Origin: Aridibaculum aurantiacum
GTDB taxonomy: Bacteria; Bacteroidota; Bacteroidia; Chitinophagales; Chitinophagaceae
Length of the DNA stretch: 64,000 nucleotides
Direction of reading: 5' to 3'
Assembly: GCF_017355875.1 (NCBI RefSeq)
Contig: NZ_JAFEWC010000004.1
Location: 12,989 to 76,988, forward strand
Below the pieces are notes generated by a model. The model worked only from the letters and a program-made list of their open reading frames with translations. It made no database searches and was not told where the DNA came from. The translations under genes and the position numbers were made by a program. Below, one piece after another: positions 414 through 31,175 of the stretch (positions within the stretch are counted from its first letter, which is position 1; each line of letters opens with the position of its first letter).

Positions 414-2171
414 CTATTGAATGGTCATTGTTTGGGTACGTTCGTTGAGCGTAATCGTATAAGTACCAGCGGTTGCAGGTGTCTTAAAGTTATCACCGCC
501 TTCCCAACGTATTCTTCTTGTATTTGCTGCAGCACCAGGACCGGCATCTTCATAATCAAATGCGCCCCATGCATTTCCTGAAAGGAATTTGATATCCTTA
601 TTCGCTTTTAAACCTACAGTCAACGTCCATATACCATTTCCTGAAAATTGCATAGCTGGAGAAGATGCAGGATCCCAATCATTCACGCCAGCCATGTTTA
701 TACCATCACCCACCAAACGCATTTCAGGAGCCAGCATCAACTCGTACTTAATGTTGTCTGGATCTCTGCCATCCCAGATTACCCTGTACCTGCCGGCTGC
801 AGGAATGTTAGGGAAATTAGAACCATTTACTTCCATAGTAGTTCCGGTGCCGCCAGCTGCACCATAGCTGCGGGTTTCAGTTACAGTATTGCTACCGTTG
901 TTCCACTCGTTATTATCAATCATTTTCCATCCACCTGCAGGAAGATCGAAAACGCCAACAAAAAGGTTTCTTCCGGCATAGCCCAATGAATGTGTGGTTA
1001 CAGCCGAAGCAGGAGACCATCCATTCACATCACCAACTATACCCATTCTGCCTTCGCGGATATCGTATTTCATATTTGCCAGGTCTACGCTTATGCGATA
1101 TACACCAGCATTTTGTACTGAAAGGTTCGCACCACCAGCAGACAGGTTGCCATTCGTGCCACCGTAGTTTGTACTCCATGAGCGGCCTTCAGTTATTTTG
1201 AATTCAGCACCTGCAGGCAGGTAGATGTAGGTGTAGTACATTTTGTTGAGCAAGCCACTGCGCAGGTCGCGAATGAATTCAGGCGCATTGCCTGGTTCCC
1301 AATCGGTACCGTTGCCGGTAGCAGCCTGGTAGCCTCCCGGCATGTACAGGCGCAGCAATGGCACGTAAGTATTTACAGTAATGGCAACCCTGTTACTAAA
1401 AGCAACTGCACCTTGTGCAGTGGTAGCTTTCACCCTGTATTCCAATCTTCCGGTAGTGCCGCCTGCTACACCTTCAGTAAGAGCTGTTTCGTTTATTTGT
1501 CCTTGAGTTAATGCTAAGCTATAGGTGTTAGCTCCTGCTGCTAATTCATTAGGACTAGCAAAGTTTTTACCTACAGAATCGTACTGGATGCTATAAGTGA
1601 TCATTCCTGTATAACCTACAAAAGAAGGTGTCCAGTTAAACGTCAGCGCATTTTGACTAGATGAGGCCAATGTACCTGTAACGGTGGTGGCAGTGCTGGT
1701 AAGCGTAGAAGAGTCAGTGAATGGAGTAACTGTCAGGCGAACCACGTTAGACATGTACTGCTCGTTGTTGTTCTTATAAGAAGAAACCACACGAACATCC
1801 ATGTTATATGGTGTACCCAGTTGGAAGCCATATCCAAGTAGAATAGCATTCAGTTCTCTACCTGTGAAAGAAGTACTTCTTTGACCGGTAACCTCTTTGG
1901 TTACTTTACGTGAAAAATCCCTACCAGCAGAATCGATCTCAACTACATATTTATAGTTGTTGCTGTCGGTGGCGTAGTTGGGACTTGTCCATGAAAAAGA
2001 AACCACAGCAGTATTAGAATCTGCAGGGGTAGGAGCTACAGTGGTACGCGAAGCTGTCAGTGTAACAGGAGTACCCTTTCCATAATAAGGAAGGTCTGCT
2101 ATTTTTCTACAGCCGGCGATGGATAGCACCACTACCAGTGTGAAAGAAAGAAGTTTAAAAAGAGTTTTCAT
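414..2171 (-). CDS. SusF-like outer-membrane starch-binding lipoprotein
   Basis: Lipoprotein signal peptide (…SIAGC). It is the last gene of the susC-susD-susE cluster. Ser/Thr/Asn-rich composition suggests repeated Ig-like/CBM modules typical of SusE/SusF-family proteins. Confidence 0.55.
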   Translation of the reverse strand: MKTLFKLLSFTLVVVLSIAGCRKIADLPYYGKGTPVTLTASRTTVAPTPADSNTAVVSFSWTSPNYATDSNNYKYVVEIDSAGRDFSRKVTKEVTGQRSTSFTGRELNAILLGYGFQLGTPYNMDVRVVSSYKNNNEQYMSNVVRLTVTPFTDSSTLTSTATTVTGTLASSSQNALTFNWTPSFVGYTGMITYSIQYDSVGKNFASPNELAAGANTYSLALTQGQINETALTEGVAGGTTGRLEYRVKATTAQGAVAFSNRVAITVNTYVPLLRLYMPGGYQAATGNGTDWEPGNAPEFIRDLRSGLLNKMYYTYIYLPAGAEFKITEGRSWSTNYGGTNGNLSAGGANLSVQNAGVYRISVDLANMKYDIREGRMGIVGDVNGWSPASAVTTHSLGYAGRNLFVGVFDLPAGGWKMIDNNEWNNGSNTVTETRSYGAAGGTGTTMEVNGSNFPNIPAAGRYRVIWDGRDPDNIKYELMLAPEMRLVGDGINMAGVNDWDPASSPAMQFSGNGIWTLTVGLKANKDIKFLSGNAWGAFDYEDAGPGAAANTRRIRWEGGDNFKTPATAGTYTITLNERTQTMTIQ

Positions 2172-2228: not shown

Positions 2229-3050
2229 TTACTGTTTTACTACCGTGTATTTACCTGTTCTGAAATTCAGGGTGATCTTGTAAGTGCCGGCATCACCAGG
2301 TGTAGGAATGGCATCAGGATCGCTGCCGCCGCCCAGGTTCACACCTATATCACCACCGGTAGCACTGCTTCCACCATACTGTGGTTGCCACTGCCCTGGG
2401 TGCGATAAGAACTTATACATGGTTCCCGGAGAAAGCTGCGTGATGATGAAATATTCTCCCCTGTCTACACGGGTAAGCTTTTGAGCTGCAGGTGGTGAAT
2501 TTGTCCAGCCTGAAGCGGTAGCATCACCAGTCATATACAACTCGTTGCTTGTAGGAGGAGGCACAGCAAAATCCTCGTAAGGCACAACGCCTGTTATTTG
2601 TATAGCATTGGAGAATAAACGAGCAGTTCCATTAATACTGGAAGCAATGCGGATCTCAATGTTATGCGGAATCTCTGCAACCATTCTCATCCGGGTCAGG
2701 TAGTTGTTCATCATTGCTACCGTTACTGTACGCGACAGGTCGTTGCTGATAGCTATTTCCACCTTTTCAGGATTGGTGAAATTTGCTCCAACTGTATCTA
2801 CCTGTAAATGGTAGGTTACATTGTGAGAACTGACACCGGTATTGAACATATAATCCGGGTTGGTCCAGTTTAGCTGTGCAAACACTTCGTCTTTTCTTGC
2901 TGCTGTCAGCACTTTGTTGGCTGTAACTGTAGCAGTCAGTTTAGGCGCTGTTCCTCCTTGCAGAACAACCCTGTTCTCTTCTTTCTTACAACCCGCCAGT
3001 ACAACCAGCGTGAGTGCAGCAGAAAAAAACCAATTCATATATCGTTTCAT
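2229..3050 (-). CDS. SusE-like outer-membrane lipoprotein
   Basis: 273 aa with a lipoprotein signal (…VLAGCKKE). It sits directly downstream of susD and upstream of the SusF-like gene, matching the canonical Sus operon order. Confidence 0.55.
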   Translation of the reverse strand: MKRYMNWFFSAALTLVVLAGCKKEENRVVLQGGTAPKLTATVTANKVLTAARKDEVFAQLNWTNPDYMFNTGVSSHNVTYHLQVDTVGANFTNPEKVEIAISNDLSRTVTVAMMNNYLTRMRMVAEIPHNIEIRIASSINGTARLFSNAIQITGVVPYEDFAVPPPTSNELYMTGDATASGWTNSPPAAQKLTRVDRGEYFIITQLSPGTMYKFLSHPGQWQPQYGGSSATGGDIGVNLGGGSDPDAIPTPGDAGTYKITLNFRTGKYTVVKQ

Positions 3051-3070: not shown

Positions 3071-4675
3071 TTAGTACCCTGGGTTTTGCCTGATGTTAGG
3101 GTTAGCACTTACCTCAGTAGAAGGTAATGGGAACAACCTGTAATTAGATGATACTGCTGTTCCGCCTTGTACTCCGCCTTTCCATGGCCATAGGTAAGCT
3201 GCAGTAGTAAACCTGTTGTAGCGGATAAGGTCGCTACGACGAACAGCCTCCCAATACATTTCACGGGATCTTTCATCCAGCAGCAGGTCAAGCGACAGTG
3301 CAGAAACATTGCCTGATGCATTTCCATATGCACGCTGGCGTAGCGTGTTGAAATAGGTCAGTGCTTCATTCTGGTTACCACCTGTTCCACCGCGCAATAC
3401 TGCTTCAGCGTATATCAGGTACATTTCAGCTAAACGGAAAACAGGAAAATCTACATCAGAGTAAGTTCTTTCAGGGTCGTTACCATAGCCACCTGTGCGG
3501 GTACGGTTTCTAAACTTAGCTACACCCAAACCTTGCTCAAATACGCTGATGTCAGAGATTTCTACATTGTGCCCGTCAGTGAAGAAAAGTGCTCTCCTGT
3601 CGGTAATGTTTGATGAAGAAAAATTAGGGAAGCCAGGGAATTTTTCTGGCAGGTTGCGTGTTGTGCGCAGACCACTCCAGCCAGAAAGGCCGGTAAGGTC
3701 TTTATGCGGGGTGCTGCCACCACCTGTTGAACCATTGATTAAGAATGTAGTTCCTCCAAAGTTCCTTGTACGTACACCATCATAGTTCAATGTCCAGATA
3801 AACTCAGTGTTATTAACATGGTTATCAGCCATAAACAAGTGGCTGTAGTTAGGCATCAGCGTATAGCCGCCATCTATTACTTTTTTAGAATAGGTAATAG
3901 CGTCGTTCCACCTTGCAGTTCCTGTATAAACTTCTGCATTTAGGTAAAGCCTTGCCAGCTGTGCCCATGCAGCTGCCCTGTCAGCCCTGCCGTATGGTGC
4001 AGCTCTTGGCGCATCCATTTCAGGTTCTATTGCTTTCAGTTCAGCTTCTATAAAATTGAACAGGTTCTGCCTGGTTATTTGCTGTGGAAGATTTCCTGCA
4101 CCTATGGGTGTTTCTTCATTAGTAAAACCTGGATTTCCAAAAAGGTCAAGCAGTACGCTATAAACGTGCGCCCTTACAAACCTTGCTTCAGCGCGCATCT
4201 TGCGTATATTATCAGCAGAAGCTGTTAATCCACGCTGGCTGATCCTTTCAGGAGAACTTTCCCTGATGAATTCGTTGGAAAGTGTAATGATATAAAAACA
4301 GCGGTTGTACAACCCGTTCAACATACCATTGTTAGCGCTCCAGTTCAGGTTGTGGAAGTCACGGATACCGGCATCGTTCCAGGCAACTACTGCTTCGTCT
4401 GTGGTTAGCTCCTGTGCCATCCACATCAGGCGCAGGAAGTCAGAGGTACCTTCATCTATACCTGCTACATCACCTGCACCAGCAGGACCAGCATTACCGG
4501 TAAGCGCCATTGAACCGTACACTTTTGAAAGCACCTGCAGGTAACCTCCTTCAGTGCCGTATACCTGCGCCGACGTTACATCGTTGGGCGGGAACCTATC
4601 AAGATCTTTGTGGCATGCTACCAGCAGCGTTGCCGCCATCAGCACCCAAATACTATATGTTATTAGCTTTTTCAT
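3071..4675 (-). CDS. susD: SusD/RagB-family nutrient-binding outer-membrane lipoprotein
   Basis: 534 aa with a lipoprotein signal (…LLVACHKD). It lies immediately downstream of the TonB-dependent receptor with a 19-bp gap. It has SusD-like length and TPR-like composition, including the RYNRFTTAAYLWPW-type C-terminal region. Confidence 0.85.
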   Translation of the reverse strand: MKKLITYSIWVLMAATLLVACHKDLDRFPPNDVTSAQVYGTEGGYLQVLSKVYGSMALTGNAGPAGAGDVAGIDEGTSDFLRLMWMAQELTTDEAVVAWNDAGIRDFHNLNWSANNGMLNGLYNRCFYIITLSNEFIRESSPERISQRGLTASADNIRKMRAEARFVRAHVYSVLLDLFGNPGFTNEETPIGAGNLPQQITRQNLFNFIEAELKAIEPEMDAPRAAPYGRADRAAAWAQLARLYLNAEVYTGTARWNDAITYSKKVIDGGYTLMPNYSHLFMADNHVNNTEFIWTLNYDGVRTRNFGGTTFLINGSTGGGSTPHKDLTGLSGWSGLRTTRNLPEKFPGFPNFSSSNITDRRALFFTDGHNVEISDISVFEQGLGVAKFRNRTRTGGYGNDPERTYSDVDFPVFRLAEMYLIYAEAVLRGGTGGNQNEALTYFNTLRQRAYGNASGNVSALSLDLLLDERSREMYWEAVRRSDLIRYNRFTTAAYLWPWKGGVQGGTAVSSNYRLFPLPSTEVSANPNIRQNPGY

Positions 4676-4693: not shown

Positions 4694-7600
4694 TTAAAAG
4701 TTCAGGTTGAAGCCTAAAGTGAATGTGCGTGGACGAGGATAGAACTGGTTGTCTATACCGCCATTGATCTCAGGATCGATACCAGAATACCTGGTGATCA
4801 CAAATGCATTTTGCACATTGGCTGAAACTCTTAGTCTTGAACCTCTGAAAACCTCACCTGCATCGTAAGAAACATTGATGTTATCCATACGCAGGAATGA
4901 AGCGTTCTGAACAAAATAATCAGATACATACAAGTTTGGATCTGCACCAACAAAGTTGGTAGTAAGGAAGCTGGTAGAACCATTGTTCATCCAACCAAGG
5001 GGGTTGAAGATGGCACGTTGTGTTCCTAAGTTAGAGTGAACGTTGTTGTACACATAGTTGTCGAAGCTACCACGTGCAACAAAACCTGCAGCCCACTTCT
5101 TATAAGTAAGGCTTGAGCTAAAGCCAAGCAGGTAACGAGGCTGAACTGACTTGTACTGGTAACGGTCGTCATCGTTGATAACACCATCACGGTTCAGGTC
5201 TTCATACAAACCTTCTATCGGGCGTCCTGATGCATCATATACTTGCTTCAGTACATAGAAACTTGAAGGCAGGTACCCGATACTGTGGATTAAAACAGTG
5301 TTACCTGTACCACCCTGGATGCCGCCAAAACGATTTCCGCGGAAAGAAGGATCAGGGTTCAACAGTAGCTGGCTGATCTTAGGATCGATGTATGTAAAGT
5401 TGAAGTTTGCATCCCATGTGAAATCCTTACGCTGAATAGGCACAGTATTGATGGTTACTTCCACACCACGGCTTTCTATGCTACCAACGTTTGTCAACAA
5501 CTCATTACTGAAGTTGGTTCCCAAAGCAATTGGCACTACGCTCAGCAGGTCTCTTGTTTTACGAGAGAATACATCTACCGAACCATTGATACGGTTTTTA
5601 AAGAAACCAAAGTCAAGAGCTACGTTTACATTCTCTGTTGTTTCCCACTTCAGGTTTGGATCGTAAGCCTGTGGGCGCAACATTGGGTAGAAAGTGTTGC
5701 CAAGCTGGTATTGAGCTGTGTTATTGCTAAGCGTATAACGAGGAATGTAGCCATAGAAATCAATTCCACCTTGCTGGCCTGTAACACCATAACCAACTCT
5801 CAATTTCAGGTCAGATACTGTATTGGAATTTTTCAGGAAGCTTTCTTCGTTGATGCGCCATGCAAAGGCAGCAGCAGGGAAGAAGCCCCAGCGATTGTCC
5901 TGGCTGAACTTAGATGTACCATCTGTACGTGCACTCAATGTAACTACATACTTATTGGCAAGGGTATAATTCAAACGGCCGTAGTAAGAGATCAGTGTAA
6001 ACTGCGGTTGGTTCATTGGGAACTGCGGCGTAGACTCTGGTCTTATACTTCCATTGAATCTGAAGTCAGGATAATTAAAATTAGTAAACCTGAAATCCTG
6101 GTAACCATGACCAGCCATCAGTTCCAAACGGCTATTGATGCTGGTAAGGTCGCGGGTATAGTTCAGGTAAAAATCGAGAAGCAGGTTGCGCTGCTGGCTC
6201 TTATAACGGTTGCGCATACCACCATAATGAAGAACGCTGTCTGCAGTACCTGCACGGTTCCTGCCAATTTCGTAACGACGATAAAATGCACCCGCACTGT
6301 CGCTGGCAACATCAGTACCCTCGCCACTTTGTACATCATATCCTAGGTTCAGGTTAGCACGCAAGCCTCTTACAAAAGGAAGTGAATAGTCGAACTGAAC
6401 ATTACCGATGCTGCGGAATACTTCGCTCCTGTTTTCACGCATTTCAAGTAAAGAAACCGGGTTACGTGGAGCAAGATCTCTTGGAACCTGTCCAATACCA
6501 ATTGTTTCTAAATATTCGAAATAGCCACCAAAGCGGTTGCTGTTGGTACGTACTGGTTGTGTAGGATCGAATGCTATTGCAGAGCCGATAGCTCCTTCGT
6601 CAGCAAAACGATTACCTGTTCTTGCACCTTTTAAATTAATATCTACACGCAGTTGGTCCTTCAGGAAACGTGGGCTCAGGTTGATGGCCAATGTTTGCCT
6701 GTTGAAGTTGCTGGTGCGCAAAATACCATCCTGGTTTAGCATGCCACCAGAAATACGGAAAGGCAGTTTACCATCTGCTATTGCACCAGATGCAGATATG
6801 TTCAAATCCTGGCCAAAAGATGTTCTGAAAATCTCATCCTGCCAGTCAGTATTAGCTGTTCCAAGTTTAGCTGCATCACCAGGTGCACCCTTGCTGTTTA
6901 CTATGCTACGCAGCTGGTCTGCTGAAAGCACATCCACCTTGCGGGCAGGAGTTTGAGCAAATGCCTGAGCATTTACATTGTAAACAACTCTACCTCTTTT
7001 ACCTTTTTTGGTAGTAATAAGGATAACACCATTAGATGCCCTTGAACCATAGATAGCGGCAGCAGAAGGATCTTTTAGTACAGTAAAAGTTTCGATGTCG
7101 TTTGGATTGATCATGTTGAGCGGGTTCGCAGAACCAGCTACACCACCATTGTCTACAGGTACACCATCAATTACAATCAGCGGATCGTTGCTCGCATTTA
7201 GCGAAGCACCACCACGAATTCTTATTTGGCTACCAGCACCAGGAGCACCACTGGAAGGTGAAATCTGAACACCCGCTACTTTACCGGCTATCAGTTGCTC
7301 CGCTGAAACGATGTTTCCTTTCTGGAAATCTTTTTCAGTAACGGTGGCAACAGCACCTGTAACATCGCGGCGGCGCTGGGTACCATAACCCACTACTACC
7401 ACCTCGTTGAGTGCAGCGGTAGCACCTGCCAGCACCACGTTAATAGGACCATCAACAATGGCCACTTCTTGTGTGGTAAAATTTACCGAGCTGATCACAA
7501 TGGATGTTGCCCGGGCAGGAACTTTTAAAGAGAAGCTGCCATCAGCGGCAGTTGAGGTACCAGTTGTACCTCCTTTCATTACAACGGAGGCATTAGCAAC

Positions 7601-7717
7601 AGGAGCTCCACCGGCATCGGTTACGCGTCCTGTAACTACTTTGTCTTGCGCAATTACTTGTCCTGTAAAAAGGAGCAAGGGCAAGACCATAGCAAAGAGC
7701 AGTCGTTTAAAGGTCAT
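4694..7717 (-). CDS. susC: SusC/RagA-family TonB-dependent outer-membrane receptor
   Basis: 1007 aa with a signal peptide. It has an N-terminal carboxypeptidase-regulatory-like region and a plug domain with the VVVVGYGTQRRRDVTGAV TonB-linked signature. The C-terminal beta-barrel ends in an aromatic residue (…LNF). Confidence 0.9.
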   Translation of the reverse strand: MTFKRLLFAMVLPLLLFTGQVIAQDKVVTGRVTDAGGAPVANASVVMKGGTTGTSTAADGSFSLKVPARATSIVISSVNFTTQEVAIVDGPINVVLAGATAALNEVVVVGYGTQRRRDVTGAVATVTEKDFQKGNIVSAEQLIAGKVAGVQISPSSGAPGAGSQIRIRGGASLNASNDPLIVIDGVPVDNGGVAGSANPLNMINPNDIETFTVLKDPSAAAIYGSRASNGVILITTKKGKRGRVVYNVNAQAFAQTPARKVDVLSADQLRSIVNSKGAPGDAAKLGTANTDWQDEIFRTSFGQDLNISASGAIADGKLPFRISGGMLNQDGILRTSNFNRQTLAINLSPRFLKDQLRVDINLKGARTGNRFADEGAIGSAIAFDPTQPVRTNSNRFGGYFEYLETIGIGQVPRDLAPRNPVSLLEMRENRSEVFRSIGNVQFDYSLPFVRGLRANLNLGYDVQSGEGTDVASDSAGAFYRRYEIGRNRAGTADSVLHYGGMRNRYKSQQRNLLLDFYLNYTRDLTSINSRLELMAGHGYQDFRFTNFNYPDFRFNGSIRPESTPQFPMNQPQFTLISYYGRLNYTLANKYVVTLSARTDGTSKFSQDNRWGFFPAAAFAWRINEESFLKNSNTVSDLKLRVGYGVTGQQGGIDFYGYIPRYTLSNNTAQYQLGNTFYPMLRPQAYDPNLKWETTENVNVALDFGFFKNRINGSVDVFSRKTRDLLSVVPIALGTNFSNELLTNVGSIESRGVEVTINTVPIQRKDFTWDANFNFTYIDPKISQLLLNPDPSFRGNRFGGIQGGTGNTVLIHSIGYLPSSFYVLKQVYDASGRPIEGLYEDLNRDGVINDDDRYQYKSVQPRYLLGFSSSLTYKKWAAGFVARGSFDNYVYNNVHSNLGTQRAIFNPLGWMNNGSTSFLTTNFVGADPNLYVSDYFVQNASFLRMDNINVSYDAGEVFRGSRLRVSANVQNAFVITRYSGIDPEINGGIDNQFYPRPRTFTLGFNLNF

Positions 7718-7890: not shown

Positions 7891-10779
7891 TTAATTTATA
7901 ACCTGGAACTGTTGAACCTTCATTTTGCCATTCACTTCAATCTTTAACAAGTACATTCCTGTGGCAAGTCGCGAAGGATTGAAACCATTAGAATTAATTG
8001 GTAATTTTTGAGTTCCTCTTGCTTTAAAACCTGTGTATAGTGTAGCCAGTTGCTGGCCTGTCATATTCAATACAGACACCGTCACATTTCCACTTTCAGG
8101 CAGATCGTAATCTATAACCGCGAACTTGTTTACCGGGTTTGGATATATAGACATACGCATGTTGAGCGCTGTGGCAGCAACATTTCGCACTGGTGTGGTA
8201 ACAAGATTATTTACATCCCTGTTCAGGTATACAGCATATTCTCCAGGCTGCAGTGTGATGCTTTCTGTACCACCTGTCGCGTTGCGCGTACCACCGCCTG
8301 TATAGTTGTACCAAATACCAGGGCTCTGGAAAGTGATATTACCAGTAGCCGGCACTACATCAAAATTGCCTATGACGGTAACGCGTAACGAGTCAGAATT
8401 CACCTGCAACCACTTAAAGGCTCCGGCTAAGTTGTATGAAACATTATTGGTAACCCAGGTAGGAAGGAAGTTGGGAATATTGCGCAAACGCAGCATGCGT
8501 GCATAATGATCGTGTAATGCTTTGCGATTTGGATTGCCTAGATAATCCCAGCGAATAGGCTTCGGATCTGTACGGCAATTATCATTCACGGTTCCGTTCT
8601 GGCAATAGTTGATAGAAAAATCGTAACCAAGTTCACCAAACTGCCACATCATTTTTGGCGCAGGTATCATTGACCAGAAACTGGTAGTTAGCTCGTTTCT
8701 TTTAAGTGCTACATTCAGGTCGCGTACATTATGAGCAGGGTTGTTGGTATTACCAAAGTTCAGGTTTCTATACATTAGCCTTTCTTCATCATGGCTTTCC
8801 TGGTAAGTGATCAGGTGAGGCCGCGTCCAGTTCCTGGCAGTATGAATGCCCCATTGGAAATTTGACTGAGCCAAATGCCCCATGGCAGCTTCGCTGAAGT
8901 TGTGGTTCAGGTTGCCCCACAGCAGCATGCCATAATTAGCCAGTTCTGTTTCTTCTGAGTTATCTGCAAAGTGTTCCAGTATGCAATAAGAATTAGCGGA
9001 CGTTGCCATCATTTTATCGTAAATGCGTTTCCAGATGGCAATACGGCTGGCATCGTAGTTGCCCCACTGCGCTACATTACTACCAGAGTTTACCTGTGTA
9101 AACCCTTTAGAAAGATCCCATCTGAAACCATCGATCTTATAGTTGGTTAGCCAATGCTCCACCACGCGGTCTACCAATGTCCTTGTTGCCTGGCTTTCAT
9201 GGTTGAAATCAAAACCAACATTGAAAGGGTGACGCGCTTCTTCATTGTGCCATGGGTTATCGGCAGACGGACGATTGAGTGCTGCATTCCAATACATCTG
9301 CACAGTTGGTGACATACCAAAAGCATGGTTCAATGCTATATCCATCACCACTGCTATGCCTTCTTTATGGCACTCATCAATAAACTGGCGCAATGCTGTT
9401 TCTGTACCATAAATTTTATCAGGGGCAAAAAAGTAAGAAGGATTGTATCCCCAGCTGATGTTGCCTTCAAACTCGTTGAACGGCATAATGTTGATGGTGT
9501 TGATGCCCAAACGCTTCAAATAGCCAAGCGTATCGCGTAAGGTATTCCAGTTTTGTGTGGCCACAAAATCACGCACCAGCAGTTCGTAAATAATCAGGTT
9601 TCTTTTATCAGGCCTGGCAAAATTTTGTACCTGCCAGTTGAATGTAGGCTTTGCTGTCTGCAGCACACTCACCACACCCGACTGACCAGCAGGGTAAGGT
9701 TTCAAATTTGGATAGCTGGCAGCCGGGATGTATTGGTCATTCCATGGATCCAATACTTTTTCAGCATACATATCTGCCACCTTCAATGTGCCATCAATCA
9801 AAAACTGGTAAGCATATTCTCTTGCAGGTGTAAGACCAGTAATCCTTACCCAGAAACGATTTCCATCAGGCGTTTTCTTCATCTGGTGCTGTACAGTTGG
9901 CGCCCAGTTATTGAACTCGCCAATAACAGCAACCGAATTTTTACCCGGGGCAAAAAGCACCAACGTAACAGAAGTATCGCCACTCTCGTAGTTGATACCA
10001 TTGCGTACACCAGCAGGTAGTGGTTCCACTACAGTGGTCGGTGTTACAAAAAAGGTAACGGTATCTCTTTTTACTGTAGTACCCACTGTCGCTTCTGCTA
10101 TCACGGTTTGGGTACCGGTAGTGGTGATGGTAACATTTGCTGAGACAGTGGTAGCATTTGCTGCATTTGCCACCTCGGTTCCATTAAATAGTAATTTCAG
10201 TTGTGCAGCATCGCTCGAAGCGCCAGAAATTGTAAGTGAATTTCCAATGACAAGGTTCAAAGGCTCTGCAATAGGATTGAACGTAGGCTGACGGAAAGGC
10301 TGCGTCACTCTCACCTGCAGGTTGTTATCATAAACCGGGATGTACATATCCGTTCCATCACGATTTCTTTGCGCCTTGGCTCCAGTTCCGCTTCTAAACA
10401 GGATCACGATCTTTTGGATCACCTCGTTCTGGTTGGTAACGCCAAAAAAGCTGCGTAGTCCACCTGTAATGGTAAACCTCCACTTGTTAGGCGACACATA
10501 AGTAGCCTGCGCTGCCGGTGTTGCCTGTCCCCATGTGAACTTAGAGTACTTCCAGTCGGTAGGGCTGGTGCTCAGGTTGGTGATCAGACCAATATGTACA
10601 TAAACATCAGAAGTAGGTGTATGATCTTTTAATCCCTGGTTGCCAAAGTTGGCGTCCATGGAGATCTCAATTGTAGAAGAAGATTCTCTTACAAAAACAG
10701 GATTGGTAGAGAGGAGCTGTCCCTGGCAGATCACTGCATAGAACAGGAAAAACAGTGTAGAAAATAGTTTCATACGCAC
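7891..10779 (-). CDS. GH13 alpha-amylase (SusG-like) with a C-terminal T9SS type A sorting domain
   Basis: GH13 catalytic motifs are present: VVMDIALNHAFG, GFRWDLSKGF, YQESHDEERL. The C-terminal ~90 aa (MSIYPNPVNKFAVIDYDL…LLKIEVNGKMKVQQFQVIN) match the Por/T9SS secretion-system C-terminal sorting domain. Confidence 0.85.
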   Translation of the reverse strand: MRMKLFSTLFFLFYAVICQGQLLSTNPVFVRESSSTIEISMDANFGNQGLKDHTPTSDVYVHIGLITNLSTSPTDWKYSKFTWGQATPAAQATYVSPNKWRFTITGGLRSFFGVTNQNEVIQKIVILFRSGTGAKAQRNRDGTDMYIPVYDNNLQVRVTQPFRQPTFNPIAEPLNLVIGNSLTISGASSDAAQLKLLFNGTEVANAANATTVSANVTITTTGTQTVIAEATVGTTVKRDTVTFFVTPTTVVEPLPAGVRNGINYESGDTSVTLVLFAPGKNSVAVIGEFNNWAPTVQHQMKKTPDGNRFWVRITGLTPAREYAYQFLIDGTLKVADMYAEKVLDPWNDQYIPAASYPNLKPYPAGQSGVVSVLQTAKPTFNWQVQNFARPDKRNLIIYELLVRDFVATQNWNTLRDTLGYLKRLGINTINIMPFNEFEGNISWGYNPSYFFAPDKIYGTETALRQFIDECHKEGIAVVMDIALNHAFGMSPTVQMYWNAALNRPSADNPWHNEEARHPFNVGFDFNHESQATRTLVDRVVEHWLTNYKIDGFRWDLSKGFTQVNSGSNVAQWGNYDASRIAIWKRIYDKMMATSANSYCILEHFADNSEETELANYGMLLWGNLNHNFSEAAMGHLAQSNFQWGIHTARNWTRPHLITYQESHDEERLMYRNLNFGNTNNPAHNVRDLNVALKRNELTTSFWSMIPAPKMMWQFGELGYDFSINYCQNGTVNDNCRTDPKPIRWDYLGNPNRKALHDHYARMLRLRNIPNFLPTWVTNNVSYNLAGAFKWLQVNSDSLRVTVIGNFDVVPATGNITFQSPGIWYNYTGGGTRNATGGTESITLQPGEYAVYLNRDVNNLVTTPVRNVAATALNMRMSIYPNPVNKFAVIDYDLPESGNVTVSVLNMTGQQLATLYTGFKARGTQKLPINSNGFNPSRLATGMYLLKIEVNGKMKVQQFQVIN

Positions 10780-10840
10780 AGCAATTTCGTCAGTTAGAAT
10801 TTGATTTAGTTGATAATCAACGTCATCTACTTAAATCAAA

Positions 10841-10857
10841 TGTGTAAATCTTACACA
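10841..10857. promoter_or_regulatory. Candidate operator palindrome TGTGTAAAtcTTACACA upstream of the amylase gene
   Basis: Near-perfect inverted repeat about 65 bp upstream of the amylase start. The same motif recurs twice in the pullulanase/regulator divergent region. Confidence 0.45.
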
Positions 10858-10925
10858 ATATAGAAAATATTTTATCCGTCAAATACTTTGTTAAAAAATA
10901 ATCCTCTGCTATAGGCTTATAACCA

Positions 10926-11675
10926 TTAGAAATCTATTCCGAACCACTTCCGCTTGTTTTGTTCATATTTCTCAAAATTGAACTTGTACAGTTTTCCCGG
11001 CCGGTGCGGAACATCTTCTTCATATTCTTCTATATCTATCAGGAAATCCATAGAGAAAAACTTCTTCCGGAAATTGCGGCGGTCGAGTGAAACGCCTAGA
11101 ATTGCTTCATAAAGGTTCTGCAACTGGCGCAGCGAAAACTTTTCGGGCAGCAGGTTGAAAGCTAATGGATGCTCCTGGATACGCTTCTGCAGCCAGCTGT
11201 AGCATTCATCAATAATATCCTTATGATCAAAAGCCATATCGCACAGCTGGTTCACCGCATGCCAGTGCAATTCATTATCTAAGATCTTTAACTGGTGGTG
11301 AAGCACATTTAACAGCGAACAGTAAGCAACTGTTACTACTCTTCCACCCGGGTGGCGGTTGGGGCTGCCAAAGGTTTTTACCTGCTCCAGGAATACGTCT
11401 TCCATGCCCGTACGCTGGCGAAGAACCCGGTACGCTGCCTCGTCCAATTCTTCTGTATCGTGCACTACATCACCCAGTAGCGACCATTTACCTTCAAAAA
11501 CTTCAAGATCACTGCGTATCAGCAGCACTTTCAGCTCATTCTCGTCAAAGCCAAAAATGACACAGTCTACAGTAATGGGAACAACAGGATAGGAATCAAC
11601 AAGTGATTTTGGATCTTGAATAAGTGGAGCTTCCTGTGGCATATCTAGTACGCCTGGTGATGGAGATTTATCCAT
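10926..11675 (-). CDS. Nudix-hydrolase-family transcriptional regulator (NrtR-like; Nudix domain plus C-terminal winged-helix-like domain)
   Basis: 249 aa. The N-terminal Nudix fold carries a degenerate Nudix box (GKWSLLGDVVHDTEELDEAAYRVLRQRTG). The C-terminal ~90 aa are of winged-helix type. The gene sits between divergently organised starch-degrading genes, as known for Bacteroidota NrtR-like sugar regulators. Confidence 0.55.
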   Translation of the reverse strand: MDKSPSPGVLDMPQEAPLIQDPKSLVDSYPVVPITVDCVIFGFDENELKVLLIRSDLEVFEGKWSLLGDVVHDTEELDEAAYRVLRQRTGMEDVFLEQVKTFGSPNRHPGGRVVTVAYCSLLNVLHHQLKILDNELHWHAVNQLCDMAFDHKDIIDECYSWLQKRIQEHPLAFNLLPEKFSLRQLQNLYEAILGVSLDRRNFRKKFFSMDFLIDIEEYEEDVPHRPGKLYKFNFEKYEQNKRKWFGIDF

Positions 11676-11730
11676 ATTGGCAATCGTTAGTTTCTAGAAA
11701 GGATATGAAAGTAGGATATTTTAAGATTAA

Positions 11731-11747
11731 TGTGTAAATGATACATA
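11731..11747. promoter_or_regulatory. Candidate operator palindrome TGTGTAAAtgaTACATA (imperfect)
   Basis: Second copy of the TGTGTAAA half-site in the regulator/pullulanase intergenic region. Confidence 0.35.
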
Positions 11748-11802
11748 TCATCAAAATCCTGGTGAACGCACATTTCCTTTACGAGTCAAAGATATCTGGT
11801 AA

Positions 11803-11820
11803 AGTGTAAAAGTTACACAT
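11803..11820. promoter_or_regulatory. Candidate operator palindrome AGTGTAAAagTTACACAT upstream of the pullulanase
   Basis: Inverted repeat GTGTAA/TTACAC about 30 bp upstream of the pulA start. It is the third copy of the motif. Confidence 0.45.
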
Positions 11821-11849
11821 TCATTTTATACTTTTATTTTCCTCAATTA

Positions 11850-13859
11850 TTGCTAATGATAACTTGCCTTGCCCGCCACACATTTTTGGTGGTATCAATT
11901 TTTCTCTATTGCTCTTTCAATATGATAGCAATAGCACAAGAACAAACAACGTATCCAGTTTATACCGGCTCCGATCTTGGGGTAACGTACCAACCCAAAG
12001 GCACCAAATTTAAAGTATGGGCACCCAATGCATCGGAAGTGGTGCTACGGCTGTACCCATCAGGCCTGGGTGGAACGGCAACAAAAACCATCAATTTAAA
12101 ACCTAGCACCAATGGTGTATGGGAAGTAGTGGCGGAAGGAGATCTGAAGAACCAATACTATACTTTCCAGGTAAAACAGGAAGGGAAGTGGTTGCTGGAG
12201 AGACCTGATATTTATGCCAAAGCCGTAGGCGCCAATGGTCTGAGAGGAATGGTGGCAGACATGAGATCTACTAATCCAAAGGATTGGGAGAAAGACAAAA
12301 GACCGCAGCAGAAGAGCTTTACCGACATCATCATTTACGAAACGCATGTACGCGACCTCTCCATCAGCCCCAACTCAGGCATCAAGAACAAAGGCAAGTT
12401 CCTGGGTTTTACAGAAGCCGGAACCAAATCACCAACAGGTGAAAGCACTGGTCTTGATCATTTAAAAGAACTGGGAATTACCCACGTTCACCTGCTGCCT
12501 TCCTTCGACTTTAGCACCATAGATGAAACGAAGCTGGAGCTAAATGAATACAATTGGGGCTATGATCCTGCCAATTACAATGTTCCTGAAGGGAGTTATG
12601 CTACAGATCCATATGATGGAAATGTGCGGATCAAAGAATTCAAACAACTGGTAAAAACACTTCATGATAATAGTATCCGTGTGATACTGGATGTAGTATA
12701 CAATCATACAAGCACTACTGAAAAATCCAACTTCAACCAGTTTGCGCCGGGTTATTACTACCGGTTAAAAGAAGATGGCTCCTATTCCGACGCCAGTGGC
12801 TGTGGAAATGAAACTGCATCGGAAAGAGCAATGATGCGCAAGTTCATTGTAGAATCAGTTGCATATTGGGCAAAGGAATATCATATTGATGGTTTCCGTT
12901 TCGACCTGATGGGTATCCATGATATTGAAACCATGAACCAGGTAAGCGAGACGCTGCATAAAATAGATCCTACCATTTTTGTGTATGGCGAAGGCTGGAC
13001 AGCAGGTGGCAGTCCATTGCCTGAAGATCAAAGGGCAATAAAGATCAACACGCCAAAACTGCAAAATATTGCTGCCTTTAGCGACGACATCAGGGATGGC
13101 TTACGCGGCCCTTTTAGCAACGACCGCGAAATTGGCTTTGTTAGTGGAAAAGCGGGCACAGCCGAAAGTGTGAAGTTTGGCATTGTAGCAGCAACACAGC
13201 ACCCGCAGATCAACTACCATCATGTGAATTATTCAAAAGCTCCATGGGCAAATGAACCGAGCCAGTGCATCACCTATGTTTCCTGCCACGACGACCATAC
13301 ATTGTTCGACAGGCTGAAACATGGCAACGAACATGCCTCGGAAGAAGCATTGATAAAAATGGACAAGCTGGCGCATACTACAGTGCTTACAAGCCAGGGG
13401 GTGGTTTTCCTGCATGCAGGCGCTGAACTATTACGCACCAAACAAGGTGTTGCCAATTCGTACAAATCGCCGGATGCCATCAACCAAATAGACTGGAGCT
13501 GGAAAAACAAGTACAAGAAAGAATTTGAATATTACAAAGCACTGGTAGCGCTGCGCAAAAATCATCCGGCTTTTAGAATGTCGACTACCAAAATGATCCA
13601 GGAGCATCTTAGGTTTCACGATACACACGACCCGCTGCTGATAAGCTACGAGATAAGTGGCAATGCCAACGGCGACAAATGGAAGCAAATACTTGTGCTG
13701 CTAAATGGAAATAAGCATGATAAACATGTCTCGCTTCCTGCCGGTGAGTGGACATTGGCTGGTGATGGAAATACCATCAACGAAAAAGGTATCAGGAAAG
13801 TAGAAGGTACAGAACTGACCATACCTGCTACCACTGCATATATATTGTTTGCACGGTAA
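11850..13859 (+). CDS. pulA: Type I pullulanase (GH13_14)
   Basis: 669 aa with an N-terminal CBM48-like region. GH13 motifs are present: DVVYNHT, GFRFDLMG, YGEGW, YVSCHDDHTLFD. Confidence 0.85.
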   Translation: MLMITCLARHTFLVVSIFLYCSFNMIAIAQEQTTYPVYTGSDLGVTYQPKGTKFKVWAPNASEVVLRLYPSGLGGTATKTINLKPSTNGVWEVVAEGDLKNQYYTFQVKQEGKWLLERPDIYAKAVGANGLRGMVADMRSTNPKDWEKDKRPQQKSFTDIIIYETHVRDLSISPNSGIKNKGKFLGFTEAGTKSPTGESTGLDHLKELGITHVHLLPSFDFSTIDETKLELNEYNWGYDPANYNVPEGSYATDPYDGNVRIKEFKQLVKTLHDNSIRVILDVVYNHTSTTEKSNFNQFAPGYYYRLKEDGSYSDASGCGNETASERAMMRKFIVESVAYWAKEYHIDGFRFDLMGIHDIETMNQVSETLHKIDPTIFVYGEGWTAGGSPLPEDQRAIKINTPKLQNIAAFSDDIRDGLRGPFSNDREIGFVSGKAGTAESVKFGIVAATQHPQINYHHVNYSKAPWANEPSQCITYVSCHDDHTLFDRLKHGNEHASEEALIKMDKLAHTTVLTSQGVVFLHAGAELLRTKQGVANSYKSPDAINQIDWSWKNKYKKEFEYYKALVALRKNHPAFRMSTTKMIQEHLRFHDTHDPLLISYEISGNANGDKWKQILVLLNGNKHDKHVSLPAGEWTLAGDGNTINEKGIRKVEGTELTIPATTAYILFAR

Positions 13860-13886
13860 CCTACATTTGCTGTCCAATCGTACCAC

Positions 13887-15992
13887 ATGTATTCAAAGGA
13901 ACAAGTAGTAGCCCTACAGAAACGCACGAAAGAGCTAATTGAGGCCAATCATACAGAGAAAGCATTCGAGATAATAGAGCAGCTGCGCGACATTCTCCGC
14001 TTTCACGAGTACCGATATTATGTATTGAACGACCCGCTCATTTCCGATGCAGAATACGACCAGCTATACAAACTGCTGGAGAAGATAGAACATTCGCACC
14101 CGGAGCTCATTACAACTACATCACCTACACAACGTGTGGGCAGTAGCCTGAACGCTGCTTTTAAAACTGTTCCGCACCTGGTGCCGATGCTTAGCCTGGA
14201 GAACAGCTATAATGCTGATGACTTAATTGACTGGGACCGCAAAGCAAGAGAAGTAGCCAAAAAAGACGAGCTGGAATATTGCATCGAGCCGAAGTTTGAC
14301 GGTGCCAGCATTTCACTTATTTATGAGAATGACCACCTGGTGCGTGGCGCCACCCGTGGTAATGGTGTAGAAGGCGACGACGTTACCACCAACATGAAGC
14401 AGGTACGCTCTATTCCACTGCACGCTGCCTTTTCTGAATATGGTGTGCACACGGTAGAGATACGTGGCGAGGTGATGATGAGCAAAAAAGCCTTCAAAGC
14501 TTTTAACGAACAACTGGCAGAACAGAACCTGCCGCCACTGGCCAACCCGCGCAATGCTGCTTCTGGTAGTTTGCGCATGAAAGATCCTAAAGAAGTAGCA
14601 CGTAGAAGACTGGAAGCCTTCCTGTACAACATCAGCTATCATACTACTACCGGAGAAGCTGTAGACAAAAAGAAAGATGCGCTGCTGCACACTCACGCCG
14701 GCAACCTGCAGATGCTATGGAATGTTGGCTTTCGCAGCCCGATGAACGAGATGAAGGTGGTGAAGGGAATACAAGCCGTGATAGACTACTGCAACGAGTA
14801 CGAAAGCAAGCGCGACGACCTGCCTTTTGAAATAGACGGCATGGTGATAAAGGTGAACGACCTGGCGCTGCAGGATGCAATGGGCATGACCACCCACCAT
14901 CCCCGCTGGGCTATTGCATACAAGTTCAAAGCAAGGCAAGCAACCAGCAAGCTGCGCAATGTAGAGTTCCAGGTGGGCCGCACCGGCTCTATTACACCTG
15001 TAGCTAAAATTGACCCTGTGTTCATTGGTGGTGTTACGGTTGGTTCTATCTCTTTGTTCAACGAAGATGTGATAAAGGAGAAGGACCTGATGATCGGCGA
15101 CACCGTGCTGGTGGAAAGAGCAGGTGATGTAATACCATACATTGTAAAATCATTGGCAGAGGTAAGAGATGGTAGTGAAACAAACATCCAGTTTCCTACT
15201 AAATGCCCTGCCTGTGAAAGTGAATTATATAGAGAAGAAGGCGAGGCTGTGTGGCGCTGCGTAAACATTGAATGTCCTGCGCAGGTGGTAGAAAGAATGA
15301 TCCACTTTGTAAGCAAAGACGCCATGGACATCCGCAGCTTTGGCGAAGCCAACATTCGAAAATTCTATGAACTGGGACTGCTAAAAGATATTCCCGGCAT
15401 CTACCAACTCGACTGTACCCGCATCGGCAGCCTGCCGGGCTTTGGAAAAAAATCAATAGACAACATACAAGCCGCCATTGAAGCATCCAAGCAACAAACG
15501 CTCAACCGGCTGATCTTTGCACTGGGCATTCGCTATGTGGGCGAAACAACTGCCAAGGTGCTGGCCAATACCGTAGACCACCTGCTCGACCTGAAAAACT
15601 ATAGCGAAGAACAACTCCAGTCGCTGGAAGACATAGGCGTGAAGGTGGCAAAGAGCATCCATACCTTCTTTAGCAACGAACAGAACATAGAGATGCTGCA
15701 TCAACTGGAGAGCTTAGGTGTGCAGATGAATAACACCAAGCGAACGGCTCCTGTAGCCGGTGGCTTAAGCGGTCAGACCTTCTTGTTCACCGGCACCCTC
15801 AACAAACTAAAACGTACACAGGCAGAAGAAATGGTAGAACAGCAGGGAGGGAAGCTACTCGGCAGCGTCAGCAGCAAACTCAACTACCTGGTAGTAGGCG
15901 AAGACGCCGGCAGCAAGTTGGAAAAAGCAAAAAAGATCAACACGGTGAAGATTATTAGTGAAGATGAGTTTTTGCAGTTGATCGGTGGTTAG
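13887..15992 (+). CDS. ligA: NAD-dependent DNA ligase
   Basis: 701 aa. Adenylation motif KFDGASISLIYENDHLVRGATRGNGVEGDDVT. Cys4 zinc finger (CPACESELYREEGEAVWRCVNIECPAQ). HhH and C-terminal BRCT (FLFTGTLNKLKRTQAEEMVEQQGGKL) domains are present. Confidence 0.95.
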   Translation: MYSKEQVVALQKRTKELIEANHTEKAFEIIEQLRDILRFHEYRYYVLNDPLISDAEYDQLYKLLEKIEHSHPELITTTSPTQRVGSSLNAAFKTVPHLVPMLSLENSYNADDLIDWDRKAREVAKKDELEYCIEPKFDGASISLIYENDHLVRGATRGNGVEGDDVTTNMKQVRSIPLHAAFSEYGVHTVEIRGEVMMSKKAFKAFNEQLAEQNLPPLANPRNAASGSLRMKDPKEVARRRLEAFLYNISYHTTTGEAVDKKKDALLHTHAGNLQMLWNVGFRSPMNEMKVVKGIQAVIDYCNEYESKRDDLPFEIDGMVIKVNDLALQDAMGMTTHHPRWAIAYKFKARQATSKLRNVEFQVGRTGSITPVAKIDPVFIGGVTVGSISLFNEDVIKEKDLMIGDTVLVERAGDVIPYIVKSLAEVRDGSETNIQFPTKCPACESELYREEGEAVWRCVNIECPAQVVERMIHFVSKDAMDIRSFGEANIRKFYELGLLKDIPGIYQLDCTRIGSLPGFGKKSIDNIQAAIEASKQQTLNRLIFALGIRYVGETTAKVLANTVDHLLDLKNYSEEQLQSLEDIGVKVAKSIHTFFSNEQNIEMLHQLESLGVQMNNTKRTAPVAGGLSGQTFLFTGTLNKLKRTQAEEMVEQQGGKLLGSVSSKLNYLVVGEDAGSKLEKAKKINTVKIISEDEFLQLIGG

Positions 15993-18917: not shown

Positions 18918-18928
18918 AATGTTTGATT

Positions 18929-20995: not shown

Positions 20996-20998
20996 AAG

Positions 20999-24793: not shown

Positions 24794-24802
24794 AAAATTG
24801 AT

Positions 24803-26545: not shown

Positions 26546-26547
26546 GA

Positions 26548-29139: not shown

Positions 29140-29250
29140 GTCAGGTTAATATTAAAACCGGACAACATTGGGGGATGTTAGTCTTGGTTAGCTAAGCAGG
29201 TTAATTGCAAGTTGAATGTACAACTTCATTAATTAACTACTACAGTTAAC

Positions 29251-30516: not shown

Positions 30517-30941
30517 TTCCTGGAAGATACAATTTTGCCAGGCAATTTAGCAAGAGTTTTTTGAAGTTTCCCTGCTTTTGTCTCACACTCCCAGACTGTG
30601 AGTACTTTCCATCCAGCATCTTGAAGAGCTTTTTTGTTTCTCTTGTCTCTTCTGACGGTATCCGAAAACTTCTTTTTCCAATTTGTACTAGATTCTTGTG
30701 ATGGAGTCGTGCAATACCTGCAGCCTGGATGCCGATGAAAATAACACCCATGTATGTCAACTACCGTTTTATACTTCGGCAAAACAATATCAGGCTTACC
30801 CGGCAGATCCTTGACATGAAGCCGGTAACGGAAGCCGTGCTTGTGCAGAAAGCGACGCACCAGCATCTCGGGCTTTGTATCCTTGCCCCTGATTGCAGCC
30901 ATATTTTTACTGCGTGTTGCTTTATCATGCACATCTGCCAT
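30513..30941 (-). CDS. vsr: Very-short-patch-repair endonuclease
   Basis: Vsr signature MADVHDKATRSKNMAAIRGKDTKPE…VDIHGCYFHRHPGCRY…VWECE. The stop overlaps the dcm start in ATGA. The supplied ORF extends to 31049 (178 aa), but the conserved Vsr N-terminus begins at the Met at 30941. Confidence 0.8.
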   Translation of the reverse strand: MADVHDKATRSKNMAAIRGKDTKPEMLVRRFLHKHGFRYRLHVKDLPGKPDIVLPKYKTVVDIHGCYFHRHPGCRYCTTPSQESSTNWKKKFSDTVRRDKRNKKALQDAGWKVLTVWECETKAGKLQKTLAKLPGKIVSSRK

Positions 30942-31175
30942 ATACCAAAGCTCCAGTTCAATCATCTCGCCAAAGTCTCTGCCAGCACCTTTAACACCGT
31001 ACAAGTTGCGACCCCGCCTTCGCCAATGCTTCGGTCGGGGCAGGCGCAATCGCGGCCAAATAATATTATAGGGCTGGTCCCATAATAATTCCTTCCCAAG
31101 TAAGCGGCGGCGTGGTAACCATGTGATGGATGATTGGTGGCGAGATCCAACACCTATTCACGCAGCACCCACCCA

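Follow-up and report, generated by a model that had tools for sequence, protein, structure and literature searches.

The starch locus and its regulator gene

The 64,000-nucleotide stretch analysed here, referred to as the window, comes from the genome of Aridibaculum aurantiacum, a soil bacterium of the Chitinophagaceae, and carries a polysaccharide utilization locus (PUL) for starch, in which a gene encoding a Nudix-type protein is located between an operon headed by a GH13 amylase gene and a divergently transcribed pullulanase gene. Judging from its sequence, this protein is a one-component transcription factor of the NrtR family that belongs to the sugar-responsive AraR-like branch of Bacteroidota. 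It is proposed here, with a probability of roughly 0.75, to act as an AraR-like Nudix repressor of the starch locus that binds three operators (O1–O3) in the spacers flanking its own gene and is released from them by a cytoplasmic molecule derived from alpha-glucans. The genes of the locus are listed below.

10926..11675, minus strand: regulator gene, 249 amino acids (aa); Nudix-like domain at residues ~34-158 and NrtR/AraR winged helix at residues ~170-243
7891..10779, minus strand: GH13 alpha-amylase-family enzyme with CBM48 and a type IX secretion system (T9SS) C-terminal sorting domain; likely start ATG 10773
4694..7717, minus strand: SusC/RagA TonB-dependent transporter (TIGR04056, 2.3e-221)
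3071..4675, minus strand: SusD-family starch-binding lipoprotein (NF033071 SusD, 7.6e-125, below the equivalog cutoff; Pfam SusD_RagB)
2229..3050, minus strand: SusE-like outer-membrane protein (PF14292, PF16411)
414..2171, minus strand: SusE/SusF-like surface glycan-binding protein with X25 and CBM20-like starch-binding modules (PF14292, PF22058, PF16411 and, weakly, PF00686)
11850..13859, plus strand: type I pullulanase (TIGR02104, 812 bits, cutoff 504); likely ATG 11856
13887..15992, plus strand: NAD-dependent DNA ligase LigA (TIGR00575), 27 bp past the pullulanase gene

The regulator gene is co-oriented with the amylase, susCDE and SusE/F-like genes, the GH13 amylase gene being the first of the PUL operon, while the pullulanase is divergent and, when read from ATG 11856, displays an N-terminus resembling a signal peptide. 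A DUF2461 gene comes after ligA. No other regulators and no kinase or receiver domains were found in the nine open reading frames (ORFs) scanned from the SusE/F gene to DUF2461. Moreover, a tblastn search using a TPR+DUF6377 protein from the metagenomic locus L197, an architecture that we take to be that of SusR-type regulators, detected no such gene, either in the window or in any of the remaining 199 loci compared. Thus, the Nudix-type protein is the sole regulator seen at the locus. Arabinose genes were not seen near the regulator either, its neighbours being the GH13 amylase, SusCDEF, pullulanase and ligA genes.

Family and branch of the regulator

Pfam searches support the reading of an earlier note on this DNA, which had recognised an NrtR-like Nudix regulator. 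A NUDIX domain (PF00293, E 8.1e-9, residues 34-158) is accompanied by NrtR_WHD (PF21906, E 6.9e-26, residues 172-232, all 61 model positions covered) and AraR_C (PF19368, E 3.6e-11), so that the DNA-binding domain, whose absence would have spoken against the note, is present. The assignment to the NrtR family stands, but the nearest characterised relative lies in the sugar-responsive AraR branch and is not the ADP-ribose-sensing NrtR. The closest solved structure is AraR of Bacteroides thetaiotaomicron (BtAraR, PDB 5bs6; E 4.4e-54), with 39% identity over 217 aa in a MAFFT alignment, and NrtR of Shewanella (SoNrtR, PDB 3gz5) is a much weaker match in the structural database (E 2e-23); the Nudix domain aligns to both structures over its full length. 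The best NCBIfam match, the ADP-ribose-responsive repressor NF050029, reaches 123 bits against a cutoff of 400 and thus remains below the equivalog level.

The traits of the NrtR family found here comprise a Nudix-fold N-terminus, the NrtR winged helix, palindromic operators and an impaired Nudix signature (GX5EX7REUXEEXGU). The REUXEE portion of this signature reads R83-V-L-R-Q-R88 (RVLRQR) in the regulator, and across 118 orthologues V or I occupies position 84 and R position 88 without exception, while position 87 carries Q in 65 and E in 49 of them. A broken Nudix signature has been described as a mark of non-catalytic regulators (PMC2330246, PMC4666351). Since the glutamates of the catalytic signature are replaced, the Nudix domain is predicted to be catalytically dead, and hydrolase activity is not expected. 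At the protein level, the regulator is 100% identical to an Aridibaculum aurantiacum entry annotated as 'NUDIX hydrolase', and this name and '8-oxo-dGTP diphosphatase' recur as a misannotation across several thousand database homologues. The present assignment corrects both names for the regulator protein.

Three operators flanking the regulator gene

The window was searched with the 17-bp pattern TGTGTAANNNTTACACA (TGTGTAA-N3-TTACACA), allowing up to two mismatches. Only three matches occur in the 64 kb, beginning at 10841, 11731 and 11803, and all of them lie within about 320 bp of intergenic DNA flanking the ORF 10926-11675(-). Dinucleotide shuffles of the window yielded 0.38 matches on average, and three matches were reached by only 1 of 100 shuffles.

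O1, 10841..10857: TGTGTAAATCTTACACA, no mismatches, perfect 7-bp arms and a 3-bp spacer
O2, 11731..11747: TGTGTAAATGATACATA, two mismatches, in the right arm
O3, 11803..11819: AGTGTAAAAGTTACACA, one mismatch

O1 is situated 69 bp past the stop codon of the regulator gene and 68 bp ahead of the amylase ATG at 10773. O2, which reads TATGTATCATTTACACA in the orientation of the regulator, lies upstream of this gene at 56 bp from its ATG, and O3 lies upstream of the pullulanase at 37 bp from its ATG (11856). Pattern search and direct reading of the sequence agree on the three inverted repeats that the earlier note had placed in the two spacers flanking the regulator. Its coordinates hold to within one base, the third site ending at 11819 instead of 11820, and its three palindromes are indeed three matches to the pattern, although only O1 is a perfect one. 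A scan for sigma-70 promoters and terminators over positions 10700-14000 gave counts at the level of shuffled sequence; this consensus is not applicable to Bacteroidota and the scan was not used.

Conservation of the operator in orthologous loci

Eighty orthologous loci (L001-L080; 1.25 Mb) were collected from GTDB genomes of Segetibacter, Sediminibacterium, Parafilimonas, Hydrotalea and other Chitinophagaceae, and their neighbouring genes were located by tblastn with the window proteins. The proteins encoded at these loci are 72-82% identical to the regulator of the window, and across genera the regulator is 72-84% identical. In addition, ligA, followed by DUF2461, divergently adjoins it in 64 of the 80 loci, whether or not a PUL is present. 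A downstream match to the amylase or SusC was found in 41 loci (above 40% identity in 40 of them), with the GH13 amylase syntenic after the regulator in 36 (>40% identity), and a pullulanase in the position seen in the window was found in none of the 80 genomic loci.

There are 42 copies of the exact core TGTGTA-N5-TACACA in the 1.25 Mb, as compared with 0.13 expected from base composition. Together with the three window matches against 0.38 in shuffled sequence, this indicates that the motif is not distributed at the random frequency that, according to the earlier note, would have undermined its regulatory role. Of these cores, 39, distributed over 38 loci, are located no more than 400 bp past the regulator stop codon, and 37 of the 38 loci belong to the 41 with a downstream amylase/SusC match. 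Among the other four amylase/SusC loci, three contain versions with one or two mismatches, and L037, whose sole match is a SusC of 31% identity, has no site. In turn, 38 of the 39 loci without a PUL downstream also lack a site there, the exception (L005) being a 2.6-kb contig that ends just past the site. The comparative footprinting across related Chitinophagaceae suggested in the earlier note therefore reveals a conserved operator that tracks the downstream amylase/SusC (37 of 41 loci).

The sites orthologous to O1 lie 64-341 bp past the regulator stop codon. In an alignment of 41 sites, the 12 core positions are invariant except for two single substitutions, one at each outermost base, while A and T predominate in the spacer and ATAT is preferred in the 5' flank. 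Many loci, e.g., those of a Sediminibacterium-like group, have a second site 25-31 bp downstream, similar to the tandem AraR sites that have been described (PMC4666351). Furthermore, about 16 loci possess a weaker TATGTA-N5-TACACA site at a distance of 59-102 bp upstream of the regulator gene, and O2 matches it. Because of this orthology, O2 is probably an autoregulatory site; the earlier note had placed it correctly in the spacer upstream of the pullulanase, but had taken it for a pullulanase site, which is not its primary role according to this comparison.

Some loci contain additional sites. In L050, a metagenome-assembled genome of Deminuibacter, two operators precede a starch-type SusC gene (11001-11062) and a third exact core (19043-19059), at a distance of 8 kb and on the far side of yicC, is found about 35 bp ahead of the start of another SusC-like gene, an arrangement that suggests control of two PULs by the regulator. 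L044 contains the one-mismatch site AGTGTAATAATTACACA (10429-10445) between a galactan-type cluster (LacI-family regulator/GH53/GH2) and a SusC gene whose product is 47% identical to the SusC of the window; this site could be either a chance occurrence (a rough estimate gives about 0.5 occurrences at up to one mismatch in 1.25 Mb) or part of a regulon in Parafilimonas that includes a non-starch PUL. In the PUL-less locus L046, the exact-core site TGTGTACTGACTACACA (5351-5367) is found 4.6 kb from the regulator, between asd and the gene of a bifunctional NAD(P)HX epimerase/dehydratase, and could have arisen by chance, form a weak terminator hairpin or be a target related to NAD; asd of the window (33903-34904) has no such site. 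In addition, PUL-less Sediminibacterium-like genomes (e.g., L020, L026 and L040) conserve AAACTTTGTATCTTG about 60-100 bp upstream of the regulator start, which probably serves the regulator as its promoter of the Bacteroidota type (-7 box) and is not overlapped by any palindrome. As for ligA, it was considered as the main target of the regulator and rejected, the 39 PUL-less regulator-ligA spacers having mostly this promoter-like element and no palindrome.

A probable alpha-glucan regulon and a family-wide operator in metagenomes

An independent metagenome search with the exact 17-mer TGTGTAAAWWTTACACA retrieved at least 120 contigs, which provide examples of the regulon and not frequencies. 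Among the matches listed, 112 of 123 sites lie outside long ORFs and starch-type SusC is the commonest flanking family (L140, L170, L178, L188 and L194). Tblastn also located a SusC in L153 and a GH13 amylase in L177 near the sites, and a further GH13 amylase was found in L092 by tblastn or Pfam. Other genes beside the motif encode pullulanases (L188 and L197, the site in L188 lying between pullulanase and SusC), GH97 alpha-glucosidases at 36 bp (L095, L200), alpha-glucan phosphorylases at 52-76 bp (L085, L131) and an esterase with a pullulanase X25 starch-binding module (L170). Taken with the orthologous loci, the motif tracks alpha-glucan genes in dozens of other genomes, in line with the control of a starch PUL put forward in the earlier note. 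An adjacent regulator gene is absent from several of these contigs, a finding that points to a dispersed alpha-glucan regulon and may account for the orthologous loci without a PUL.

The locus most similar to that of the window is L197, in which the pullulanase is 73% and the regulator 76% identical and the 146-bp spacer between them contains TATGTAATTTTTACACA. As with O2, a site of the TATGTA-N5-TACACA type is found upstream of its regulator gene. The assignment of O3 to the pullulanase is supported by the pullulanase-regulator spacer of L197 and by the site beside the pullulanase of L188. In L197 (8249-10098), the perfect operator past the regulator gene is followed not by an amylase gene but by that of a TPR+DUF6377 membrane protein of 578 aa whose C-terminus forms an HTH-like tail; if this protein is of the SusR type, the arrangement may constitute a regulatory cascade.

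The second-commonest flanking family among the matches listed consists of NrtR-like regulators with 33-41% identity (L118, L132, L157 and L171). An NrtR-pncA-pncB operon lies behind an identical TGTGTAAAWWTTACACA in L118 (5171-5940), and an NrtR gene with the same sequence stands beside a microbial PARG gene in L171 (7320-8114). The 17-mer also precedes nadV (L196, 1055-1071) and an ADP-ribosylglycohydrolase gene (L141, 2869-2885). Since the palindrome is found at genes of NAD salvage and ADP-ribose metabolism beside NrtR paralogues, these neighbourhoods identify it as a family-wide NrtR operator in these bacteria, i.e., a family trait and not a marker of starch genes. At the same time, a family-wide palindrome strengthens the link between the operator and the regulator family.

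Predicted recognition of the operator

The operator in the AraR crystal structure contains AAAGTGTTACTTTTACACCC, which corresponds to GTGT-N7-ACAC (PMC4666351), and the window motif, T-GTGT-AAATCTT-ACAC-A, has exactly this geometry. The recognition helix of AraR reads DNA through Lys179, Arg180 (intercalating), Asn181 and Lys184, to which the wing adds Lys204 and Arg205 (PMC4666351). Their equivalents in the regulator are R199, R200, N201, K204, H224 and R225, which are invariant in the 118 orthologues except for R199 (Arg in 117, Lys in 1). D198, R200, N201, R203, K204 and R225 are identical to their AraR counterparts, K179 and K204 of AraR being replaced by R199 and H224. As the DNA-contact residues are conserved, the regulator is, by this comparison, equipped to read the invariant GTGT/ACAC cores.

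Ligand pocket and candidate effectors

Alignment with AraR indicates that the sugar contacts Arg86, His131 and Phe129 are kept as R107, H151 and F149, whose AraR equivalents hydrogen-bond or pack against the sugar (PMC4666351). Gly47, Gly89 and Val92 of AraR are conserved in the regulator as well. Six other pocket positions have changed.

AraR Arg34 to Ser55: invariant in the 118 orthologues
AraR Phe36 to Leu57: 113 of 118
AraR Gly48 to Asp69: 112 of 118 (Asn in 6)
AraR Tyr5 to Val26: invariant in 118
AraR Asn8 to Tyr29: invariant in 118
AraR Leu67 to Arg88: invariant in 118

Arg34 is a hydrogen-bond donor to arabinose, and the triad Arg34/Arg86/His131 is conserved in all AraR orthologues (PMC4666351). 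In the present regulator, R107 and H151 retain two members of this triad, while the third is Ser55 in all 118 orthologues. With four of the six changes invariant and the other two nearly so, the effector appears to differ from that of AraR, and the pocket indicates a conserved ligand that is not L-arabinose. Regarding ADP-ribose, its contacts in SoNrtR (Arg41, Asn43, Lys76 and Arg98) correspond to Ser55, Leu57, Arg88 and Gly110, so that only the Lys76 position is basic here. From the analogy with AraR and the presence in the regulon of an alpha-glucan phosphorylase of cytoplasmic type, we infer that the effector may be glucose, maltose, a maltodextrin or a phosphorylated derivative of these.

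The alignment of R88 with the phosphate-binding Lys76 of Shewanella NrtR makes a phosphorylated or nucleotide-linked ligand conceivable. A rather unlikely version of this idea is that the effector is a phosphorylated or nucleotide-linked form of glucose, e.g., glucose-1-phosphate released by alpha-glucan phosphorylase or the glycogen precursor ADP-glucose. In that case the regulator would couple the harvest of external starch to the internal glucan/nucleotide-sugar pool and would represent an intermediate between the nucleotide-sensing NrtR and the sugar-sensing AraR. The residues pointing in this direction are the retained basic R88 and the gain of Ser55 and Tyr29 (invariant) and Asp69 (near-invariant).

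Proposed mechanism and alternative explanations

According to the proposed mechanism, the winged-helix domains of a regulator dimer would bind 17-21-bp palindromes with the core TGTGTA-N5-TACACA, with O1 serving the amylase-susC-susD-susE-susF operon, O3 the divergent pullulanase and O2 the regulator's own gene. The bound regulator would block transcription initiation by promoter occlusion, resulting in repression. A cytoplasmic molecule generated from imported alpha-glucan would then enter the catalytically dead Nudix-like pocket and, as in AraR, rotate the DNA-binding domains, so that DNA would be released and the starch genes induced. Across orthologous loci, the distance between site and amylase start is 20-117 bp and mostly 20-50 bp. 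Moreover, 22 of 40 loci have TTTG, a hallmark of the -33 and -7 promoter boxes of Bacteroidota, no more than 16 nt from the first operator on its PUL side, as compared with 1 of 40 on the mirrored side. Since the operators are situated 20-70 bp from start codons and beside this element, binding should block initiation. The characterised members of the family, NrtR, NdnR and AraR, are repressors released by their ligands (PMC2330246, PMC4666351), and operator position, TTTG element and family membership together favour a dimeric repressor that acts by promoter occlusion. The comparison shows the domain architecture, the conserved DNA-contact residues, the non-random and conserved operators and their association with alpha-glucan genes, while binding to O1-O3, repressor polarity and the nature of the effector are all features that we infer.

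Several observations weigh against this mechanism. O2 and O3 are imperfect, and the pullulanase-regulator arrangement of the window recurs in just one other locus, L197. Of the 80 orthologues, 39 have no adjacent PUL gene, and 38 of these are also devoid of a nearby downstream operator, while about 100 of the at least 120 metagenome contigs have no interpretable neighbour. R88, as discussed above, occupies a phosphate-binding position of NrtR. In addition, the operator by itself does not tell which paralogue binds it, and cross-talk is possible.

The palindromes might conceivably be bound by another factor, for instance of the Crp/Fnr type (TGTG...CACA), the Nudix protein being a mere neighbour or an enzyme. 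Their TGTG/CACA half-sites do resemble Crp-type motifs, and the public names are those of enzymes ('NUDIX hydrolase', '8-oxo-dGTP diphosphatase'). However, the spacing TGTG-N9-CACA is 1 bp off that of the Crp site TGTGA-N6-TCACA, the catalytic glutamates are lost, and a winged-helix domain with the conserved DNA-contact residues of AraR is present. The operator geometry is identical to that of the AraR-DNA crystal structure (PMC4666351), and among the metagenome matches listed the palindrome recurs beside unrelated NrtR-family genes, which makes this explanation highly improbable. A classical NrtR that senses ADP-ribose or NAD and either ties the starch genes to NAD status or serves ligA is also quite improbable. 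Membership of the NrtR family, with NF050029 as the best NCBIfam match, would fit such a regulator, as would the divergent ligA adjacent in 64 of 80 loci, the invariant R88 at the position of SoNrtR Lys76 and the identical palindrome at pncA-pncB, nadV, PARG and ADP-ribosylglycohydrolase loci. Nevertheless, the NF050029 score of 123 bits is far from its cutoff of 400, the AraR match is much closer than that of SoNrtR (4e-54 versus 2e-23), and the SoNrtR contacts Arg41, Asn43 and Arg98 are replaced by Ser, Leu and Gly (PMC4666351). Most PUL-less loci, moreover, have no operator in the regulator-ligA spacer at up to two mismatches, and near the regulator gene the operator tracks alpha-glucan genes.

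An activator or dual regulator acting on the same operators is likewise an unlikely alternative, in spite of O1 being situated 68 bp ahead of the amylase ATG, where it could precede a promoter, and of the two tandem sites 25-31 bp apart in several loci. In most loci, the proximal site comes to within 20-50 bp of the start codon and adjoins TTTG, leaving no space for a downstream promoter, and the cited family members NrtR, NdnR and AraR are all ligand-released repressors (PMC2330246, PMC4666351). The AraR-like repressor thus remains the preferred explanation for the starch locus.

Relationship to known regulators

Published roles of the NrtR family include NAD metabolism, phosphoribosyl pyrophosphate (PRPP) and the utilization of arabinose and xylose, with arabinan PULs controlled by AraR (PMC2330246, PMC3878776, PMC4666351). 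A Nudix-type PUL regulator had been regarded as less usual in the earlier note. Control of sugar genes and PULs by this family has already been published for arabinose and xylose in Bacteroidetes, which makes the present regulator less exceptional, although the link to starch is new: full-text literature searches found no connection of NrtR/Nudix regulators with starch, alpha-glucan or Chitinophaga PULs, only with arabinose, xylose and NAD. The regulator therefore represents a clade of new specificity within a known family, whose architecture it shares and whose mechanism it very probably shares as well.

The closest counterpart is BtAraR (BT0354; PDB 5bs6, 5dd4, 5ddg and 5deq; PMC4666351), which likewise combines a Nudix-like domain and a winged helix-turn-helix with a degenerate Nudix box, recognises GTGT-N7-ACAC operators that are sometimes tandem, includes SusC/D-containing PULs in its regulon and is encoded in or beside a cluster that it regulates. 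In contrast, the targets here concern alpha-glucan, a hexose polymer, instead of arabinose and arabinan, and no linkage to araMPRDAB or arabinan genes is found. The present clade occurs in Chitinophagaceae and not in Bacteroides or Prevotella, the genera of AraR, and it apparently acts as the sole PUL regulator, while AraR control overlaps with that exerted by regulators of the hybrid two-component (HTCS) type. XylR (BT0791) and other pentose-linked NrtR-like regulators (PMC2330246, PMC3878776) belong to the same family and phylum and can be likened by description, as they are also cytoplasmic sugar-sensing repressors encoded beside catabolic genes. They control xylose/arabinose pathways, however, and their link to NAD via ribose-5-phosphate (PMC2330246) does not apply to starch.

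Classical NrtR regulators, such as those of Shewanella oneidensis (SO1979, PDB 3gz5) and Synechocystis, share the fold, the 21-bp palindromic operators and a repressor released by its ligand, and among the metagenome matches listed the same TGTGTAAA-WW-TTACACA precedes pncA-pncB, nadV and PARG loci beside NrtR paralogues. The similarity of the present regulator to them is nonetheless weaker (E 2e-23), the contacts to the phosphates and adenine of ADP-ribose are mostly lost, and no genes of NAD biosynthesis or salvage adjoin the operators of the window. SusR of B. thetaiotaomicron also controls a Sus-like alpha-glucan locus (susC/D/E/F and GH13 enzymes). It is a membrane-spanning sensor-activator that detects periplasmic maltose and thus an unrelated type of protein, in contrast to the soluble and presumably cytoplasmic Nudix-winged-helix repressor described here, which contains only these two domains and neither the TPR+DUF6377 architecture ascribed to SusR-type regulators nor the sensor-kinase-receiver-AraC HTH architecture of HTCS.

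The regulation of PULs outside gut Bacteroides is poorly mapped, and the textbook starch system is under the control of SusR. A soluble Nudix-fold repressor appears to control alpha-glucan use across many soil and freshwater Chitinophagaceae, which extends the specificities of the NrtR family (NAD, arabinose and xylose) to a hexose polymer. The operator motif is ready to be used for predicting alpha-glucan regulons in Chitinophagaceae genomes, and NrtR, AraR and the present clade form a natural series for the retuning of the Nudix pocket to new ligands. The advance is incremental and brings no conceptual surprise.

Further observations on the neighbouring genes

In the window, the pullulanase gene is inserted between the regulator and ligA, and the adjacency of an NrtR-family gene to that of an NAD-consuming enzyme is suggestive. 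As ligA starts only 27 bp past the pullulanase stop codon, this essential gene may be partly co-transcribed from the regulated promoter. Directly past DUF2461, a defence island on the minus strand (16908-31049) encodes an AIPR/MzaE-like abortive-infection protein, DrmB (DUF1998/MZB), the DrmA helicase, a NERD-helicase, an 863-aa protein without a family match, the DrmMII C5-cytosine methylase and a Vsr nicking endonuclease, a gene content that resembles a class 2 DISARM system plus accessories.

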